Assembly (NCBI GenBank): GCA_023898465.1
Contig: CP060223.1
Location: forward strand, 704,001-768,000
Source of the DNA: Candidatus Nomurabacteria bacterium
Lineage (GTDB): Bacteria; Patescibacteriota; Patescibacteriia; HK-STAS-PATE-3
Direction of reading: 5' to 3'
DNA: 64,000 nucleotides
In this document: positions 3,888 through 42,885 of the stretch, one piece after another
Layout: each line of letters opens with the position of its first letter
Numbering within the stretch: the first letter of the stretch is position 1
Notes under the pieces: generated by a model
What the model saw: the letters and a program-made list of their open reading frames with translations, nothing else
Databases searched by the model: none
Told to the model about the DNA's origin: nothing
Program-made: the position numbers and the translations under genes

Positions 3888-5183
3888 TTACTTCTTCACC
3901 AGGTTCTCGAAGCGCTTTGCGTCCTTATAGGGCCCAATAATTGCGAGATTCATCTTCTGCGGATTGATAATTTTGCGAGCCAGAGCATTTACCTCTTCCC
4001 TCGTCACCCGTTGAATCTTTGCCATCTTTTCAGCCGGAGTTTCAATCTTCTTGGTGAGTAGCCACTGCTTCCCAAACCAGGCGCCAATATGATCAGAATC
4101 TTCTAATTCCAGAACCAGCTTACCTTTAATAAATTCCTTCGCTCGTTTCAATTCCGCTTCCGTGATCCCCTGTTTCCGAATCTTCTCCAGCTCCACCAAG
4201 ATTGCCTTGATCGCTTCCTCGGTTCGCTCTTTTGCCACACCGGCTTGAATATAGAGATTGCCAGTATCCTCATACACGGTTGGCGTACAGCGAATAGCAT
4301 AGGCCAGACCGCGGCGCTCTCGGATTTGGATGAAAAGACGTGAGCTCATGTTGCCACCAAGGATGGAAGTCAGTAAAGACAGGGCGGGTAAACTCTTATC
4401 AAAGTAAGAGGCTGCCGGATAACCAATGCCAATCTGAGCCTGCTCAGTCTCTTTGTACATAACCCGCACTCGCGGCTTGGTGCCCGTGTAACGAAAAGGC
4501 TTGAAGGTAAGCTCCTTCTGCTTGGTAGCTGGCACCGTGAAAAGTTTTGCCAATTGCTCATCAATAGTCTCTTCATTATAGCGACCCGATACGACCACCA
4601 TCATATTGCTGGGGAAGTAGTGCGTCTTGTAGAACTTCAAAATAGTGTCGCGAGTCACATTACGAATCACCGAACGAGGCCCGGCGATTAATTGACCAAG
4701 CGTCGAGCCAGCGTACATGGTTTCCTCAAAAATATCCTCGAGGTACATGAGCGGGTTATCCTCGTACATGCTTATCTCTTCGATAATCACAGTGCGCTCT
4801 CGATCGATTTCCTTGGCGTCAAATTTAGAGTTCGCCAACATGTCTGCAATAACATCCAGGGCAAGGTGAAGGTGTTCCGAATTAATTTTAATGTAGTAGC
4901 CCGTGTGATCCTTGCCGGTGAAAGCATTGTACTCCGCTCCCACACCATCCAGTAGGCGTGAAATTGATAAAGTGCTGGGTCGTCGCTTCGTGCCCTTAAA
5001 CATCAAGTGCTCAACAAAGTGGGAAATACCATTTACAGGCTTGCTCTCATGTCGTGAACCAACTTTGGTTAAGACAAGCACAGTCACCGCTTTTGTCTCG
5101 TGCAAAGGCACCTTAAGTACCCGCATACCGTTTTTAAGGACCGAGGTCTGGTATGGCTTCCCTGTCGCAGATTGTTTAGGCAT
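3888..5183 (-). CDS. M16 family zinc peptidase (insulinase-like)
   Basis: HxxEH zinc motif (HFVEHLMFKGT); start taken at MPKQSATG, which is preceded by AGGAG; 4 nt after the glyQS stop. Confidence 0.8.
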   Translation of the reverse strand: MPKQSATGKPYQTSVLKNGMRVLKVPLHETKAVTVLVLTKVGSRHESKPVNGISHFVEHLMFKGTKRRPSTLSISRLLDGVGAEYNAFTGKDHTGYYIKINSEHLHLALDVIADMLANSKFDAKEIDRERTVIIEEISMYEDNPLMYLEDIFEETMYAGSTLGQLIAGPRSVIRNVTRDTILKFYKTHYFPSNMMVVVSGRYNEETIDEQLAKLFTVPATKQKELTFKPFRYTGTKPRVRVMYKETEQAQIGIGYPAASYFDKSLPALSLLTSILGGNMSSRLFIQIRERRGLAYAIRCTPTVYEDTGNLYIQAGVAKERTEEAIKAILVELEKIRKQGITEAELKRAKEFIKGKLVLELEDSDHIGAWFGKQWLLTKKIETPAEKMAKIQRVTREEVNALARKIINPQKMNLAIIGPYKDAKRFENLVKK

Positions 5184-9092: not shown

Positions 9093-11807
9093 CTATAACT
9101 CAGGCGCCTGCTCGACTCGGATAACCCCACCAACCTCTAAAATCGCTTTATCACGACGACCTAACTGACCCTTTAAGAGATAGTCAGCTAATGCGTTATC
9201 AACTCGCTCTTGAATAACACGGCGCAAAGGTCGAGCACCAAAGACCGGATCAAATCCAATCTCAGCTAATTCCTGCACCGCAGCTTCAGTTGCTTCAAAA
9301 GTAATACCGCGACCCTCTAATTGTCGTTGCACCTTTGCAAGAAGTAGGCGCACGATCTGCACAATCTCATCCTTTTGCAATGGGCGGAATACGGTAATCT
9401 TATCAAAACGGTTGAGAAATTCTGGGCGATAATATTGATTCAGCACGGAGTTGATGAGCTCCTGCGTAATACCTTCAATCGTGGCCTTTTCTTGAATGCG
9501 TTTTTGAATCAGGTCTGAACCTGCGTTGGAGGTTGAAATGATAATCGTATTGGTGAAGTCGATCGTACGACCAATGCCATCAGTTAATCGGCCATCATCA
9601 AACACCTGCAGGAAAATATTCAACACATCAGGATGCGCCTTTTCCAATTCATCAAGCAAGACGAGAGAGAAGGGACTCTTGCGCACCGCTTCAGTTAAGT
9701 AACCGCCTACTGGACCCTGCGTGCCTTGATTACTACCGATCAGGCGAGAAATACTGCTCGGCTCCTGATACTCCGACATGTCGAGACGGATCATCGCATC
9801 CTCGGATCCAAAATACGCTTCGGCTAAAGTTTTTGCCAGCTCGGTTTTACCTACACCAGTCGGACCAAGGAAAAGGAAGGTGGCAATCGGTCGCTTTTGA
9901 TCACGCAATTCTGCTCGAGCACGACGGAGCGCTGCGGCAACTGCTTTGACTGCCTCATCCTGACCAATGATGCGCTGATGCATGGTTGATTCCAAGTTGA
10001 GTAACTTCTCAGACTCGGACTCATTCACTTTAGTTACTGCCACATGCGTTTTACTAGAAACAATCTTTGCCACATCTTCACCGTCTACAAAACTATTCTT
10101 ACCTTTGTGCTTATGAGCATCAACTGCAACTTCTTCCAGCAAGCTAATCGCTTTTTCCGGCAAGTAGCGATCGTGCATGTAGCGCTGTGAAAGGACTACG
10201 GTTTTTTCTAATGCATCGTAGGTAAAGAAAATGTGATGCTTATATTCAAGCGGACCGGCCTTCACCATAAGTATGCGCACCGCTCCATCAGTATCTACTT
10301 CCTGGCAATCAACTTTGGTAAAGGTGCTGGTGAGTGAAGATTGGTTTTCAATATAGCGCGTGTAGTCAATTGGATTAGTGGTGCCGATCACCTGCACTCG
10401 TCCGGTCTCCAGTGCCTGACTCAACACATCAGAGAGATCAAAACTCTCTCCACCGGCTGAAGAAATACCAACAATGTTTTGAATATTATCAATGAGTAAA
10501 ATGATATTTCCTGACTTCACCACTTCAGACAAAATCTGATTCAAGCGTCCTTCTAATTCTCCAGTTGACCCGGCATTACCAACCAGAGCTGCCACAGATA
10601 ATGAAACCAGGCGCTTATCTTTCAAAACATCCGGCACTTCCTCGGTCACCATGCGGCGAGCAATGCCATCGACAATCGCAGTCTTCCCTACGCCAGGATT
10701 ACCAACCAACATGGGACTGCCGCCTCGCTCCAAAACGCGAAACATTTCATCCAGCACTTCCTCACGTCCGACAGTCATCGGGACAGCGCCCCGTTGCGCT
10801 AAATCAGTTAAGTCATGGCTGTACTGATTCAGCATTCGAGTTTCTTGTGCCGTCATGGCCCGGTTCATACCACGCTTCGGTCGCCAAGCTGCCCGCTTAC
10901 GGAAACGCTTATACTGCTCGCACAAATCTTCCTCAATATGCGCCCAAGCCACAACGTGTCGCAGCTTGTTCTCATCTACTTCTAGGTCATAAAGAATATC
11001 CTGGGTGTGCGTTTCTGAAGTAGCTAAGGCGACCAAGACTTCCAGCACGCCAACTTGTTGACGCTTCGTTGCATAGGCTTCTCGATAGGCAGCGCAGAGT
11101 AGCTTTTTTGTTGAAGTGGAAAGATGCGGCTCCCCTGGCCAATCCTGTGGCATGCCAGTGAAAAGTTTCCCAATGCGTTGCTTCAATTGCTCGTACTGAA
11201 TATTTAAACGGGCAAAAAGTACAGCCGCTGTCCGCGTAGTTAACATTGCCGCTAAAATATGCGAGGGCCAAATTTCACGATGATTTAAATGATTCGCAAT
11301 ATCCCAAGCCTGCTGCAGCATGTGCTCTAACTCGTTGTCGAGCAAAGCTGGTAGGTCCTCTACTTTGTCGGCAAAATCTGCCTCGGAGATTTGCTCCAAG
11401 GACAATACCGTCTCCATCTCAGCTGGAGTCTGTCGCGTAATTTTCTTTCGCGGTTTTAACTCTCGCTCAATGCGAAAGTAGGCGTAACAGTCAGTTGCTA
11501 ATGAAATCCAAAAGATCAACATAGCTGGGCTGCGCAAATCCCAAAGGTCGAGCAGTGAAGCGCCGCCCTGAAGCAGTTGATACAACTCCCAAAAACCAAT
11601 GAGGAAACCCGCCAGACCAAAGAAGACTAGGAAACCGTTTATAAAGGCACGTAATCCTCGAGCAAACTTTTCGCCACTTACTTCGCTGCGACCAAATGTT
11701 TTATCCCAGTACAAAATCCGACTGCCAAACATCTCAGAGTAAGGCGCTGGTCGCTGGCCCTTTGGACTGGCCGGTGCTGGATTAGAAAAGCTGTCGGATG
11801 ATGGCAT
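9093..11807 (-). CDS. Clp/Hsp100 family AAA+ ATPase (ClpA/B/C-like) with unusual N-terminal hydrophobic extension
   Basis: Two Clp_N repeats, Walker A GNPGVGKTA (NBD1) and GPTGVGKTELAK (NBD2), sensor motifs; no long M-domain; first about 140 aa contain two TM-like helices, so the true start is uncertain. Confidence 0.85.
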   Translation of the reverse strand: MPSSDSFSNPAPASPKGQRPAPYSEMFGSRILYWDKTFGRSEVSGEKFARGLRAFINGFLVFFGLAGFLIGFWELYQLLQGGASLLDLWDLRSPAMLIFWISLATDCYAYFRIERELKPRKKITRQTPAEMETVLSLEQISEADFADKVEDLPALLDNELEHMLQQAWDIANHLNHREIWPSHILAAMLTTRTAAVLFARLNIQYEQLKQRIGKLFTGMPQDWPGEPHLSTSTKKLLCAAYREAYATKRQQVGVLEVLVALATSETHTQDILYDLEVDENKLRHVVAWAHIEEDLCEQYKRFRKRAAWRPKRGMNRAMTAQETRMLNQYSHDLTDLAQRGAVPMTVGREEVLDEMFRVLERGGSPMLVGNPGVGKTAIVDGIARRMVTEEVPDVLKDKRLVSLSVAALVGNAGSTGELEGRLNQILSEVVKSGNIILLIDNIQNIVGISSAGGESFDLSDVLSQALETGRVQVIGTTNPIDYTRYIENQSSLTSTFTKVDCQEVDTDGAVRILMVKAGPLEYKHHIFFTYDALEKTVVLSQRYMHDRYLPEKAISLLEEVAVDAHKHKGKNSFVDGEDVAKIVSSKTHVAVTKVNESESEKLLNLESTMHQRIIGQDEAVKAVAAALRRARAELRDQKRPIATFLFLGPTGVGKTELAKTLAEAYFGSEDAMIRLDMSEYQEPSSISRLIGSNQGTQGPVGGYLTEAVRKSPFSLVLLDELEKAHPDVLNIFLQVFDDGRLTDGIGRTIDFTNTIIISTSNAGSDLIQKRIQEKATIEGITQELINSVLNQYYRPEFLNRFDKITVFRPLQKDEIVQIVRLLLAKVQRQLEGRGITFEATEAAVQELAEIGFDPVFGARPLRRVIQERVDNALADYLLKGQLGRRDKAILEVGGVIRVEQAPEL

Positions 11808-27283: not shown

Positions 27284-27730
27284 ATGCCAACACTCGCCGT
27301 CAACAAATCTGTGGGCTTCAGCTTCGAAATTCAAGAGAAATTCGAGGCTGGTATTGCATTGTCTGGCCCAGAGGTAAAGGCGGCCAAGCAAGGCAACATC
27401 AGCTTGAAAGGAAGCTACATCACTATCCGGCCTGATGGCGCTTGGCTCATTGGCTGCTATATCTCCCCTTATAAGCCGGCGCAAGCTACCCAGCAAGGCT
27501 ATACCCCGACCCGAGATCGCCACCTCTTACTCCGTCAGAGCGAACTCAGCCGATTAGTGGGTGCTGCCAGCGCAAAAGGCTTGACAGTACTGCCTATTTC
27601 CTTTTATACTAAAGGAGGCTTGATAAAGGTTGAAGTCGCTATTGCTAAAGGCAAAAAAAAGGCAGACAAGCGGGAAAGCATTAAAAAACGTGATATTGAG
27701 CGGCGCATCCGCCAATCAGTCCATCACTAA
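27284..27730 (+). CDS. smpB: SsrA-binding protein SmpB
   Basis: Aligns along its length with SmpB (FEAGIALSGPEVKAAKQGNISLKGSYI...KGKKKADKRE); TATACT box 10 nt upstream of ATG. Confidence 0.85.
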   Translation: MPTLAVNKSVGFSFEIQEKFEAGIALSGPEVKAAKQGNISLKGSYITIRPDGAWLIGCYISPYKPAQATQQGYTPTRDRHLLLRQSELSRLVGAASAKGLTVLPISFYTKGGLIKVEVAIAKGKKKADKRESIKKRDIERRIRQSVHH

Positions 27731-27778: not shown

Positions 27779-28180
27779 GGGGATGCCCAATAATCGATCG
27801 ATCGTTCACAATCTGTGCAGGCAAGCCGGTCACCCAGGTCTCCCGTAACAGGCCCTGGAAAAAGCAAGTGTCAATTCATTTGCCAGCAAGGTAAAGAACT
27901 CCATTGCTAACGCAATGCAGTCACTCCAACTTGCGCCAGTTGTCGCGTAAAAACCGATAACCATCTATGCTTACGATGTCCTGAGTTGTTCGCATGGGTG
28001 CTACACTTATCAGGATAGGAACCTACCTTGTCTCGGGTTTGTTCCGAACTATTGAGACTAGGAAATAAATGATTTCGTTCGTTTCATACATTTGTTTCTG
28101 AAGCATTAAAGCGAACTAGGCTTGTAGAATGTACACGATTGTACGATGAGACGCGGGCGTGATACCCGCCATCTCCACCA
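27779..28180 (+). ncRNA. ssrA: candidate tmRNA (ssrA)
   Basis: Directly downstream of smpB; 5' GGGGAUG pairs with 3' CAUCUCC-A-CCA giving a G3-U70 wobble; T-arm GCGGG/cgugaua/CCCGC precedes the acceptor 3' strand; candidate tag reading frame GCU AAC GCA AUG CAG UCA CUC CAA CUU GCG CCA GUU GUC GCG UAA (ANAMQSLQLAPVVA) at 27906..27950. Confidence 0.55.
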
Positions 28181-28296
28181 ACCTTCGCTGTATTGAGCGA
28201 AGGTTGTCCGCCGAAGCTTTATGCGAAGGTGGACAAATGAATGTACATCAACAAGTATGCGGTAACGCAGCTTCGGTTGGCACGGCCATCCGAGAT

Positions 28297-30726: not shown

Positions 30727-30953
30727 ATCAAATAGACAACAAAATCTAGGAAATACGGATGAGAGTATATCAGTAACTTATTAAGCTGTCTAGGGTTTTA
30801 TTAGCCTTGAAAACCCCACCCTCCCCGGACCGCCGGAACAACTGACTGCGTCTCAGAAACACATGAGGAGAGAGTTCAATGCGCTTCAAGGAATACAGTC
30901 GGCTCCTGGCGGCCTGGGGAGAGGGTAACGACTAGGCGTTACCCTGTGTGTTG

Positions 30954-31139
30954 CTAGAGGTAGTGAGGCACGAAGAGAGGGCGTCGGCCGAAGTCAGGCC
31001 CTTTCCCTACGGGCTTAACAACCCGTCGTGTGAAACTCCTTCGATCTGTGTAGGTCGTCGCGATGCAGAGCTTATAACCCCGCTCCTCTGCGACCTGATC
31101 AGGATCGAAGTCAAAAACATCGACAGTGGACTTTGGCAT
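30954..31139 (-). CDS. small hypothetical protein (61 aa)
   Basis: GAGGAGG 5 nt upstream of ATG; high GC; shares the ..VD..D..E..Y...TTYT.R.. core with 31266..31619. Confidence 0.4.
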   Translation of the reverse strand: MPKSTVDVFDFDPDQVAEERGYKLCIATTYTDRRSFTRRVVKPVGKGPDFGRRPLFVPHYL

Positions 31140-31265
31140 GCAGACCTCCTCGGGTACTCAGCCTCTAGGGTTTGTACAAACTATTCCTCCTCTCACGCCT
31201 CCTCAAAAGAAGAAGTGAGAGGAGGAGAGCAAGTCAGTCGAAACTGCTTGCTCTCCAAAGAAAGA

Positions 31266-31619
31266 TCAACAGTGGTAGGTCTTCGGTCTCTGGCCTCCGA
31301 AAAGGCCGCGGTGCAGACCAGCGTCCGACCTCCTCGTCCTGCGCGGATTCAACCCGTCCTTGGGCGTACATCCGCGAGAAGTGTAGGTCGTCTGTCTCTG
31401 TGCGCCACCTACCCATGGAGCGTAGTTGACGCCGAGGTCGAGCTTCTCCCGAACCGAGAGGCTCGAGAGATCAACAGGACCGATTTGAGGATCGGATTTC
31501 GATTCCGGAGTGAAGTGATCCGTGACCTTCAGCCACGAACCATTCCCTTCTATCCGAACTGACCCTGGACGCGCGTGAATTCTACACATGCCTTCCCCCA
31601 TCTGCTTGCACTGATCCAT
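31266..31619 (-). CDS. hypothetical protein (up to 117 aa; true start uncertain), paralog of 30954..31139
   Basis: C-terminal 60 aa align to the 61-aa neighbour (PVDLSSLSVREKLDLGVNYA..TTYTSRG vs TVDVFDFDPDQVAEERGYKL..TTYTDRR); DNA-level imperfect repeat (CAACCCGTC..GTGTAGGTCGTC). Confidence 0.35.
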   Translation of the reverse strand: MDQCKQMGEGMCRIHARPGSVRIEGNGSWLKVTDHFTPESKSDPQIGPVDLSSLSVREKLDLGVNYAPWVGGAQRQTTYTSRGCTPKDGLNPRRTRRSDAGLHRGLFGGQRPKTYHC

Positions 31620-31724
31620 CAGTGCATGTAAAGGTCCATCTCTACTCCCAACCCCTTCTCACATTCCTGTGAAATGGGATAGGGGTACTTTAGCGGAAGC
31701 GCCTGCTTCTCGCAAGAATCAGCC

Positions 31725-31808
31725 ACCTCCCCTGGACACTCCTCCTCAATGAGGATTGCCCGGGGGAGGCCACGTACACCGATGCATAAGCCTCCGGTGG
31801 ACGTGGCT
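31725..31808 (-). promoter_or_regulatory. structured leader element C, copy 1 (two hairpins, core GUGUCCAGGGGAG)
   Basis: Read on the minus strand: CACGUCCACC..CGGUGUACGUG hairpin followed by CCCCGGG..CCUC..GAGG..GUGUCCAGGGGAG; homologous to 32602..32674. Confidence 0.55.
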
Positions 31809-34211: not shown

Positions 34212-34399
34212 GAATACCTCCAGCTAAACGTGTTTTCTTCCTCCCTTGAATAACTAAACTCAATTTAGTAACTCAAGGGAGGCTCCGTCCATGTAGGTGT
34301 GACATGGACGGAGCGGTACGGCCTTGAACCTTTCAAAAAAGGCGGCCGCCATCACTGCGCTGCGTATGTTTGGTGATGCAACGCTTTGTGACAAAGCTG

Positions 34400-34497
34400 T
34401 GGCAGATGCAGGATTCGAACCCAACGACTCGCGAAAGAGTCATCTGGTGAATCGGTTGTTAACCGACGGGACCACTCCCTGGTCACCAGCACCTGCC
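34400..34497 (-). ncRNA. aberrant tRNA-like element (98 nt)
   Basis: Reverse complement begins GGCAGGTG and ends GGGTTCGAATCCTGCATCTGCCA: perfect T-loop consensus, 7-8-bp acceptor helix, candidate anticodon arm UCGG-UUAACAA-CCGA, 26-nt variable arm with GACUC/GAGUC hairpin; T-stem and D-arm are poor; TATACT box 7 nt upstream of the 5' end. Confidence 0.3.
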
Positions 34498-41616: not shown

Positions 41617-42885
41617 CTATACTTCGCGCTCGCCTAAAGTGAGTTGAATAGTTTTTTCCTCACCATCATGCAATACCTTCAGACTAACAGTATCGCCTAC
41701 CTTATAGTCAATTAAGATATTTGTCAGCGTGGTATCCGAAGTAATTTTCTTGCCATCGAATTCCAGGATAATATCGTTTTCCTCTAGGCCAGCCTTATCT
41801 GCCGGACTGCCTGGGATAACCGCCAACTCGGAAGCATCACTTCCTCGAACGAGTAGAGCGCCATAATCAACTGAGAGATTGTTTTGCTCCTGCATATTGG
41901 CAGTGACTACCGTGTAGCGAATGCCTAGGTAAGGACGAACAATTTTCCCTTTTTCCTGCACGCTTTGCACATCCTGTTTAGCTGCATTAATTGGAATAGC
42001 AAAGCCAAGTGATTGACCCTCAGTAGAAACTGCGGTGTTCACGCCAATTACTTCACCGGAAATGTTCAGTAATGGACCGCCTGAGTTTCCTGAATTAATT
42101 GCCGCATCGGTCTGAATGGTGTCTTCAATCACTTCGGTTTGGCCGCTGCCATCACCTGCTTCAATAGTACGAGAGAGACCTGACACAATACCTTTCGTCA
42201 CTGTGTTTTGGAATCGACCTAAGGCGTTTCCAATTGCAATCACTGTTTCACCGATTTGCACGCTTTCTGAATCGCCCAGCTTCACTGCTGGTAAACCAGT
42301 TTTATCAATCTTCAAAATCGCCAAATCAAGACTTGGGTCTCGGGCTAAAACTTGTGCATCAACCCGCGTGCCATCATTCAGCACGACTGAGTAATCAATG
42401 GTCTCTAAATCTACTACATGCTTATTGGTAAGAATTAAACCATCGCTGGAAACAATAAAACCTGTACCACCGCGCACATCGCGCTTACCTTGTTGGGGCT
42501 GACTCGGCACCCCAATGCCAAATGGAGAGAAAAAATTTGAATCTTGAGAAATCTGACTAAAATCCTGCGTCCCAATGACGCTCACCACACTATCTTGCAC
42601 CTGATTCACTACATCAACCGTAGCTGAATCCTCGGCTACTTGCACCGTACGATTTTCAGTAATTGCTGAGCCTGAGGCATTTAAGCCAAAAAGTTTTTCA
42701 ATCCCACTGCCAAGTTGATTATTCACCGCCAACACGCCAAATACTGCTCCGGAAATAGCGCCGAGCACTAAACTAAACACGACCGCCATGATAAGTATGG
42801 AACGGAAAGCTTTTTTCTCGCTCTCGTGCATGGTCGGCTGAGAGGGTCTTACATTGTGATTTTCTTGTGGTGTGATATCCCCCAT
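41617..42885 (-). CDS. S1C family serine protease (HtrA/DegP-like) with PDZ domain
   Basis: GTGFIVSSDGLILTNKHVV, catalytic GNSGGPLLN, C-terminal PDZ; N-terminal TM anchor. Confidence 0.85.
   Translation of the reverse strand: MGDITPQENHNVRPSQPTMHESEKKAFRSILIMAVVFSLVLGAISGAVFGVLAVNNQLGSGIEKLFGLNASGSAITENRTVQVAEDSATVDVVNQVQDSVVSVIGTQDFSQISQDSNFFSPFGIGVPSQPQQGKRDVRGGTGFIVSSDGLILTNKHVVDLETIDYSVVLNDGTRVDAQVLARDPSLDLAILKIDKTGLPAVKLGDSESVQIGETVIAIGNALGRFQNTVTKGIVSGLSRTIEAGDGSGQTEVIEDTIQTDAAINSGNSGGPLLNISGEVIGVNTAVSTEGQSLGFAIPINAAKQDVQSVQEKGKIVRPYLGIRYTVVTANMQEQNNLSVDYGALLVRGSDASELAVIPGSPADKAGLEENDIILEFDGKKITSDTTLTNILIDYKVGDTVSLKVLHDGEEKTIQLTLGEREV

Follow-up and report, generated by a model that had tools for sequence, protein, structure and literature searches.

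A one-piece tmRNA gene with an unusual T-loop and a long predicted tag downstream of smpB in a Candidatus Nomurabacteria genome

In the tmRNA (SsrA) of Escherichia coli, the modified bases m5U54 and Ψ55 have been reported, and contacts between the T-loop and the D-loop are said to be needed for the binding of its partner protein SmpB (PMC3968760). The reading frame of the tag is set by the five nucleotides that precede the resume codon, and reviews give the resume codon as one for alanine, sometimes glycine, alanine being the commonest (PMC3968760). A comparative criterion, in which the tag frame is recognised by changes that are mostly synonymous, was applied by Hudson et al. to Carsonella (PMC4131195). 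In the Mollicutes, a long tag goes together with the loss of ClpXP and with recognition by Lon (PMC9382460).

Here, we describe a locus in a 64,000-nucleotide stretch of a Candidatus Nomurabacteria genome (hereafter, the window) which, judged by its sequence, almost certainly specifies a functional one-piece tmRNA working with the SmpB encoded upstream of it (Table 1). An original prediction had proposed a one-piece tmRNA directly 3' of smpB, with ends reading GGGGAUG and GCGGG-CGUGAUA-CCCGC-CAUCUCC-A-CCA and a G3-U70 pair in the acceptor helix, and had suggested as checks an Rfam RF00023 search, an ARAGORN run and an alignment to related tmRNAs for the resume codon. Both ends, at 27779 and 28180, and the G3-U70 pair can be read in the sequence. 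The RF00023 search returned a match at 27779-28180 (+) that covers model positions 1-374 of 374 with 74 bits and an E value of 7e-27, above the gathering score of 47 bits over the full model, and this was the sole tmRNA match by Rfam in the 64 kb. No convincing ORF filling the interval was present in the ORF listing. The protein encoded upstream matches Pfam PF01668 with an E value of 1.8e-45 over residues 5-146 and ends in a C-terminal tail, KGKKKADKRESIKKRDIERRIRQSVHH, that carries the GKK and DKR motifs in translation; smpB is intact and its end lies 48 nt before the start of ssrA. The support for ssrA in the sequence consists of its identity, its boundaries, a covarying secondary structure, a conserved tag frame and the intact smpB. 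A two-piece (permuted) tmRNA was considered and rejected, as the parts follow one another in the standard order (5' acceptor strand, tag, 3' T arm) and the match is to RF00023 and not to RF01849 or RF04321.

Table 1. Coordinates of the features of the smpB-ssrA locus in the window.
Feature	Position	Strand	Details
smpB, partner protein of tmRNA	27284..27730	+	148 aa + stop; Pfam PF01668
One-piece tmRNA (ssrA)	27779..28180	+	402 nt, CCA end encoded; Rfam RF00023 and covariation
Acceptor stem, 5' strand GGGGAUG	27779..27785	+	Pairs with CAUCUCC 28170-28176; includes G3-U70
D-loop analogue CCCAAUAAUCGA	27786..27797	+	UCGA box kept, usual GG absent
Long helix P2, 5' strand	27798..27826	+	Pairs with 28120-28149
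PK1	27827..27858	+	CGG (49-51)/CCG (65-67) and CCAGG (56-60)/CCUGG (76-80), tmRNA numbering; second stem placed by Rfam
Tag frame	27870..27950	+	Probable resume codon GUC 27870-27872, 26 sense codons, stop UAA 27948-27950
Helix H5, stop codon in loop	27939..27961	+	Rfam mapping and covariation
PK2	27962..28014	+	Second stem CCUGA (202-206)/UCAGG (232-236)
PK3	28018..28058	+	GGAAC/GUUCC and GUCUC/GAGAC
PK4	28061..28116	+	Second stem GUUCGUUU (299-306)/AAAGCGAAC (331-338)
T arm	28153..28169	+	Stem GCGGG/CCCGC; 7-nt loop CGUGAUA 28158-28164
Discriminator A and encoded CCA	28177..28180	+	Sequence, Rfam alignment
Perfect 11-bp hairpin	28179..28206	+	Begins inside CCA end; inverted repeat, 100% complementary

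On its 3' side, ssrA is followed by infC (with IF3_N and IF3_C domains) and then by rpmI and rplT, the latter two assigned by sequence; with infC-rpmI-rplT as the neighbour genes, no integrase or island was found at the 3' end. A promoter scan gave a sigma-70-like match within smpB at 27581-27610 (TTGACA, 18 nt, TATACT; 11/12), which is suggestive only; ssrA may be transcribed from a promoter of its own or together with smpB. The terminator scan called no intrinsic terminator after ssrA, and the hairpin that begins in the CCA end was left uncalled because no U-run follows it. Among five relatives examined at this site, L001, L002, L082 and L165 each have a stable hairpin of unrelated sequence, and L007 has none (sampled loci are designated here by L numbers). 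This would be consistent with a role of the hairpin in stopping transcription or in processing of the 3' end.

Relatives were sampled in two ways. A SmpB protein scan with one genome per species yielded 80 loci, among which the closest SmpB relatives are L001 (62% identity) and L002 (54%), followed by a series of Patescibacteria (CPR) MAGs at ~50%. Almost all of the 80 loci have a tmRNA directly 3' of smpB, such that the adjacency recurs in dozens of related genomes. Some of the record titles look unreliable: the tag of one locus labelled as uncultured Gammaproteobacteria, L017, equals that of the Ca. Buchananbacteria locus L009 but for one residue, and the 5' and 3' ends are also shared. A metagenome scan for the pattern ACGYGGGYGYRAKMCCCRCCAYCTCCACCA yielded 94 stretches; from these, together with the window and five pattern-matching genome loci, 57 distinct full-length one-piece tmRNAs were obtained. 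A few one-piece matches with the same T arm have odd lengths, namely L136 (1370-1661; 292 nt), L149 (587-1078; 492 nt) and L137 (1646-1761; 116 nt), for which deletions, an insertion or an aberrant alignment may be responsible.

The secondary structure was derived from the window sequence by mapping the Rfam alignment onto it, the second stem of each of the four pseudoknots being added by complementarity to give 99 pairs in all, and was then counted on a MAFFT alignment (A2) of the 57 sequences. Standard pairs are formed in the window by 78 of the 88 model pairs present. Across the 57 sequences and 99 pairs, 73.4% of cells form a standard pair, compared with 40-49% when the partners are slid by 1-3 columns, and the covariation score is 0.389 compared with 0.11-0.18 for slid partners; none of 500 shuffles reached any observed measure. 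Because the search pattern prescribed the T arm and the 3' strand of the acceptor in the 51 metagenome-derived sequences, these two helices are not independent evidence. With this limit, the 7-bp acceptor stem (G1-C, G2-C, G3-U, G4-C, A5-U, U6-A, G7-C) is paired in 100% of cells in the 57 sequences (3' strand pattern-fixed in 51), and its G3-U pair is invariant in the 57 homologues.

The innermost 5 bp of P2 are 97.9% paired, with four of the five pairs changing on both sides, and H5 is 82.7% paired, with changes on both sides at six of its seven pairs. Pairing stands at 79.6% in each of the two stems of PK3 and at 92.8% in the second stem of PK4, and changes on both sides are seen at every pair of these three stems (eight of eight in that of PK4). 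In PK2, the first five pairs of the outer stem are well supported. PK1 and the second stem of PK2 are misaligned in the MAFFT alignment A2 and have their support from close relatives or by eye only; the second stem of PK2 is 45.6% paired in the MAFFT columns, yet it is conserved, and compensatory variants such as CCUGC/GCAGG in L085 were found by eye. In the window itself PK1 has a weak first stem, of 3 bp followed by a U-C mismatch; across the five closest sequences, compensatory substitutions are seen in this stem (CGGA/UCCG, CAGA/UCUG and CGGU(U)/(A)ACCG).

The elbow formed by the T-loop and D-loop is non-canonical. The T arm has the 5-bp stem and 7-nt loop of the family, the stem being 100% paired with U-A/C-G covariation (the two positions concerned are Y/R in the search pattern). 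The loop, CGUGAUA, departs from UUCRANY in having no U54, U55 or C56, and its seven bases were left unaligned by Rfam. This exact loop occurs in one of the 57 sequences, the window itself, although the loop of L088 likewise begins with C. The commonest loops among the 57 are UGCAAGA (20), UGCAAUA (16) and UGCGAUA (12), and G at T-loop position 55 is stable across all 57 distinct one-piece sequences, the closest relatives included. General T-loop motifs tolerate G at position 2. Five loci of the unbiased SmpB sample (L001, L002, L007, L012 and L014), the two closest SmpB relatives among them, have a UGYRAKM T-loop, and the other Patescibacteria T-loops are CUCAYUA or the canonical UUCRA. The tRNA-Asp in the 64-kb window has a canonical GGUUCGAAUCC T arm (Rfam), and thus the odd T-loop is specific to the tmRNA.

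A second type of non-canonical T-loop, CUCAYUA, was observed in nine loci: L008, L019, L023 (CUCAUUU), L025, L029, L031, L036, L038 and L073 (CUCAAUU). All nine were missed by ARAGORN, and an Rfam match was confirmed for L008 and L019, the two that were scanned.

The idea that G55 is a novelty specific to this clade was ruled out by marine two-piece alphaproteobacterial tmRNAs that have an identical T arm. About 20 further matches to the search pattern, mostly marine, have no nearby 5' GGGGNUG, and all eight that were checked in Rfam are two-piece tmRNAs (RF01849/RF04321). These eight marine loci (L086, L093, L098, L100, L102, L105, L141 and L166; e.g. L166 at 4233-4431) carry GGG-UGCAAUA-CCC and a D-loop with AG for GG. 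As the variant is also found in these tmRNAs, G55 is a recurrent tmRNA variant.

In the D-loop, the Rfam alignment sets the consensus GAucuGGaUUCGAC against GCCCAAUAAUCGAU in the window; T16 is invariant and G18 nearly invariant in the 57 sequences of alignment A2. That the D-loop GG is lost strictly together with the T-loop variant was considered and rejected, as L005, L015, L020 and L028 have a canonical T-loop with one G or none. Since C54 and G55 replace the uridines (U56 is also a change), m5U54 and Ψ55 cannot form in the window RNA, and the T-loop/D-loop contacts for SmpB binding would have to be made differently. A canonical T-loop is a consensus feature of tmRNA and not a strict requirement, for UGYRA is carried by the 57 one-piece and by some alpha-type two-piece tmRNAs, and CUCAYUA by other Patescibacteria tmRNAs. 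We offer only tentatively, as a possibility we consider rather doubtful, that the window, its closest SmpB relatives and ~50 metagenomic sequences form a lineage with a remodelled tmRNA elbow, having a YGYRAKM T-loop, a D-loop without GG and a long tag with a basic amphipathic N-terminal half (xNxFxSKVK). If this were true, co-adapted SmpB and ribosome contacts would be expected, and perhaps a different protease or adaptor for the tag, as in the Mollicutes.

The ARAGORN check turned out differently from the Rfam search: on the 64-kb window, the program reported two tRNA-like genes and no tmRNA, leaving ssrA uncalled. The odd T-loop alone was rejected as the cause of the miss, since in-silico swaps show that one more consensus-like change is needed. 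None of six T-loop replacements restored detection on its own, and in a combinatorial in-silico test every variant detected by ARAGORN combined a canonical T-loop with at least one further change. The further changes that sufficed were conversion of the upstream box to AUAAAU, a D-loop GG with a GCC resume codon, and GCC with a GGAC junction. By these combinatorial results, a canonical T-loop is necessary and not sufficient for ARAGORN, and ssrA falls below the cumulative threshold of the program for several small reasons. The five related genome loci with the T-loop variant (L001, L002, L007, L012 and L014) are missed as well. Because ARAGORN is widely used and misses the window and these five loci, genomes of the lineage could wrongly be scored as tmRNA-less, and a naive tag call yields half of the tag.

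The ARAGORN output also includes a tRNA-like gene of ~98 nt at 34399-34497 (-), called as tRNA-Val(AAC). This stretch does not reach the Rfam tRNA threshold, its sole match being a weak one to tRNA-Sec at 22 bits (gathering score 47; E 0.04). In the suggested shape, a 9-bp acceptor (GGCAGGUGC/GCAUCUGCC) and a 3-bp T stem that closes a canonical GGGUUCGAAUCCU are combined with a long variable arm, the anticodon loop UUAACAA and a discriminator A; the fold z-score is -4.7. This shape corresponds to the 9/3 'allo-tRNAs' that Mukai et al. (PMC5389517) describe in Clostridia, Proteobacteria and Acidobacteria, and for the 9/3 class they list only Arg, Leu and stop anticodons. Elsewhere in the window, a stretch of ~1 kb downstream of the tRNA-Asp (30750-31800) has no obvious gene in the ORF listing, the ORFs of either strand being short and overlapping.

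We place the resume codon, with good probability, at GUC 27870, from which the tag reads VNSFASKVKNSIANAMQSLQLAPVVA (26 aa). In the alignment, the homologous column is occupied in relatives by GCA, GCC, GUC or GUA, and the resume codons of the relatives' tags called by ARAGORN, which include VNLFSKAKTALSNAFGGGASGLAPVCA, AKNLFTKVKSAFTPNFAFAAV and AKNLSSKVGNVLADAFSINFQPAYALAA, align to GUC 27870. The nucleotides A88 (-4), T91 (-1) and G92 (+1) are invariant among the 57 distinct homologues, as are, fully or almost so, A95 and A96. The 26-codon frames of the five closest sequences are free of gaps, and change in codons 1-9 is mostly synonymous (three synonymous and no non-synonymous differences between the window and L001; three and one between the window and L002). 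From the end of the PK1 3' strand to GUC the spacing is 11 nt, and in E. coli tmRNA that from PK1 to the resume codon is ~10 nt. The same VNSFASKVKNSIANAMQSLQLAPVVA frame was returned by ARAGORN once the T-loop and one more feature had been made consensus-like in silico. The frame is conserved as protein from GUC onward, its C-terminus is hydrophobic or alanine and its stop lies inside the H5 loop, and the related tags follow the pattern [A/V][K/N][N/T/S][F/L]x[A/S]K[V/L][K/R]...(V/A)(V/L)A. A valine resume codon is unusual, yet it recurs in L002, L007, L082, L126, L143, L165 and L005.

The tags of the Patescibacteria type (L003-L077 and L081-L173) are ~20-32 aa long and carry the motif A-K-N-[LF]-x-[AS]-K-[VL]-[KR]-x-A-F across T-loop types. 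The conservation of this N-terminal half, which in the window tag is basic and amphipathic and is shared across Patescibacteria, hints at a possible recognition function beyond the C-terminal degron.

The strongest competitor of the GUC start is one two codons further upstream, at the in-frame GCA 27864, which would give the tag ASVNSFASKVKNSIANAMQSLQLAPVVA (28 aa) with the usual alanine start; we regard it as unlikely. The codons GCA AGU GUC are in frame, the whole closest subclade of five (the window, L001, L002, L082 and L165) has the GCA, and alanine is the commonest resume codon (PMC3968760). However, in more distant clade members the GCA column holds AUA or ACA, with no codon starting in G, and L007, L126, L143 and L005 have GUC or GUA at the homologous position without an upstream GCA. 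The invariant A(-4), U(-1) and G(+1) context fits GUC and not GCA, whose directly preceding bases vary (AAA, ACU or ACG) and which lies just 5 nt past PK1. ARAGORN, moreover, chooses the GUC position even where GCA is intact (in-silico variants TDR and TRJ).

A shorter tag had been put forward tentatively in the original prediction, in which translation would resume at GCU 27906 and end in VVA-UAA, giving ANAMQSLQLAPVVA (14 aa). The alignment to related tmRNAs that it had recommended was run and favours GUC 27870 over GCU. Because GCU 27906 is codon 13 of the GUC frame, the frame, the UAA stop and the C-terminal 14 residues of that proposal hold, and it is the start that is displaced, by homology with 56 relatives, to GUC 27870. 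Nor is the VVA ending atypical, as had been thought, for the relatives end in ...PVVA, SVVA, SAVA, PVLA or PAVA and VVA is typical for the clade. In its favour, GCU encodes alanine and is correctly in frame, and a tag of 14 aa would be nearer to the classical length, but the codon lies 47 nt past PK1 and the bases before it are not conserved clade-wide. The 12 codons that precede it are kept as protein, with mainly synonymous changes, and align with the N-terminal halves of the relatives' tags called by ARAGORN (VNLFSKAKTALSNAF..., AKNLFTKVKSAF...). A start at GCU is thus most improbable.

That the deviant CGUGAUA loop, unique among the 57, the U-C mismatch in the first stem of PK1 and a score of 74 bits against 97-147 in canonical relatives mark a decaying ssrA pseudogene that has lost its function is scarcely credible, as all major helices are intact, the tag ORF is intact and apparently under purifying selection, smpB is intact, G55 is no one-off lesion, being stable in the 57 sequences and in the marine two-piece tmRNAs with L088 also C-first, and low RF00023 scores are common to the whole subclade of the window (53-94 bits; L001 61.7, L007 53.3, L014 73.7).

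A functional tmRNA resuming at GUC would be expected to work by the steps that are established for the family (PMC3968760, PMC4131195). The transcript would be trimmed to GGGG...CCA and charged with alanine by AlaRS via G3-U70. SmpB would bind the tRNA-like domain, replacing the missing anticodon arm, and EF-Tu would bring the complex to a ribosome that has stalled on a broken mRNA and whose A site is empty, where the nascent chain would be passed to the alanine. The ribosome would then switch template to the tmRNA and resume, most likely at GUC 27870, by means of the A(-4)NNU(-1) context and the SmpB tail, append VNSFASKVKNSIANAMQSLQLAPVVA and stop at UAA. The ribosome would thereby be freed, and the protein would bear a hydrophobic degradation tag ending in Ala/Val.

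The window also encodes a ClpB/ClpC-type double-AAA+ ATPase at 9093-11807 (-), with AAA_2 and ClpB_D2-small domains, and an HtrA-like serine protease with a PDZ domain at 41617-42885 (-). These are possible handlers of tagged or damaged proteins.

The ssrA gene described here has an ordinary housekeeping role and belongs to a well-known family; its lineage-specific traits are minor and bear mainly on annotation. It is a further case showing that the TΨC loop varies more in tmRNAs than in tRNAs, and the comparison shows Patescibacteria-type tags to be long and to have a conserved N-terminal motif; the understanding of trans-translation is unchanged.

When compared with E. coli SsrA, the window tmRNA shares the tRNA-Ala-like acceptor with G3-U70, the discriminator A and CCA, the long P2, PK1 before the tag, the stop in the H5 loop, three downstream pseudoknots, A at -4, a hydrophobic/Ala tag end and the presence of SmpB. 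It differs in tag length (26 aa against 10 encoded residues), resume codon (GUC for valine against GCA), T-loop (CGUGAUA against UUCGAAU, together with a D-loop without GG) and tag C-terminus (VVA against LAA). The extended ssrA tags of Mollicutes (Mesoplasma florum, Mycoplasma) are likewise long, at roughly 27 aa, and have no sequence similarity to the tag described here. The two-piece alphaproteobacterial tmRNAs (RF01849, RF04321; marine) have in common with the one-piece clade the GGG-UGCAAUA-CCC T arm and G55, but they are circularly permuted, belong to another phylum and have a short classical tag of the ANDE... type (consensus), so that the likeness is one of the same loop variant and not of relatedness. 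The smpB-linked tmRNAs of other Patescibacteria (Ca. Buchananbacteria, Nealsonbacteria and Uhrbacteria MAGs; L003-L077) share with the window the smpB-ssrA order and long tags, and have the N-terminal motif A-K-N-L-F-x-K-V-K-x-A-F, Val/Ala-rich ends and variable T-loops; unlike the subclade of the window, most of them have a canonical UUCRA T-loop and a GCN resume codon, and their D-loop contains GG or one G.
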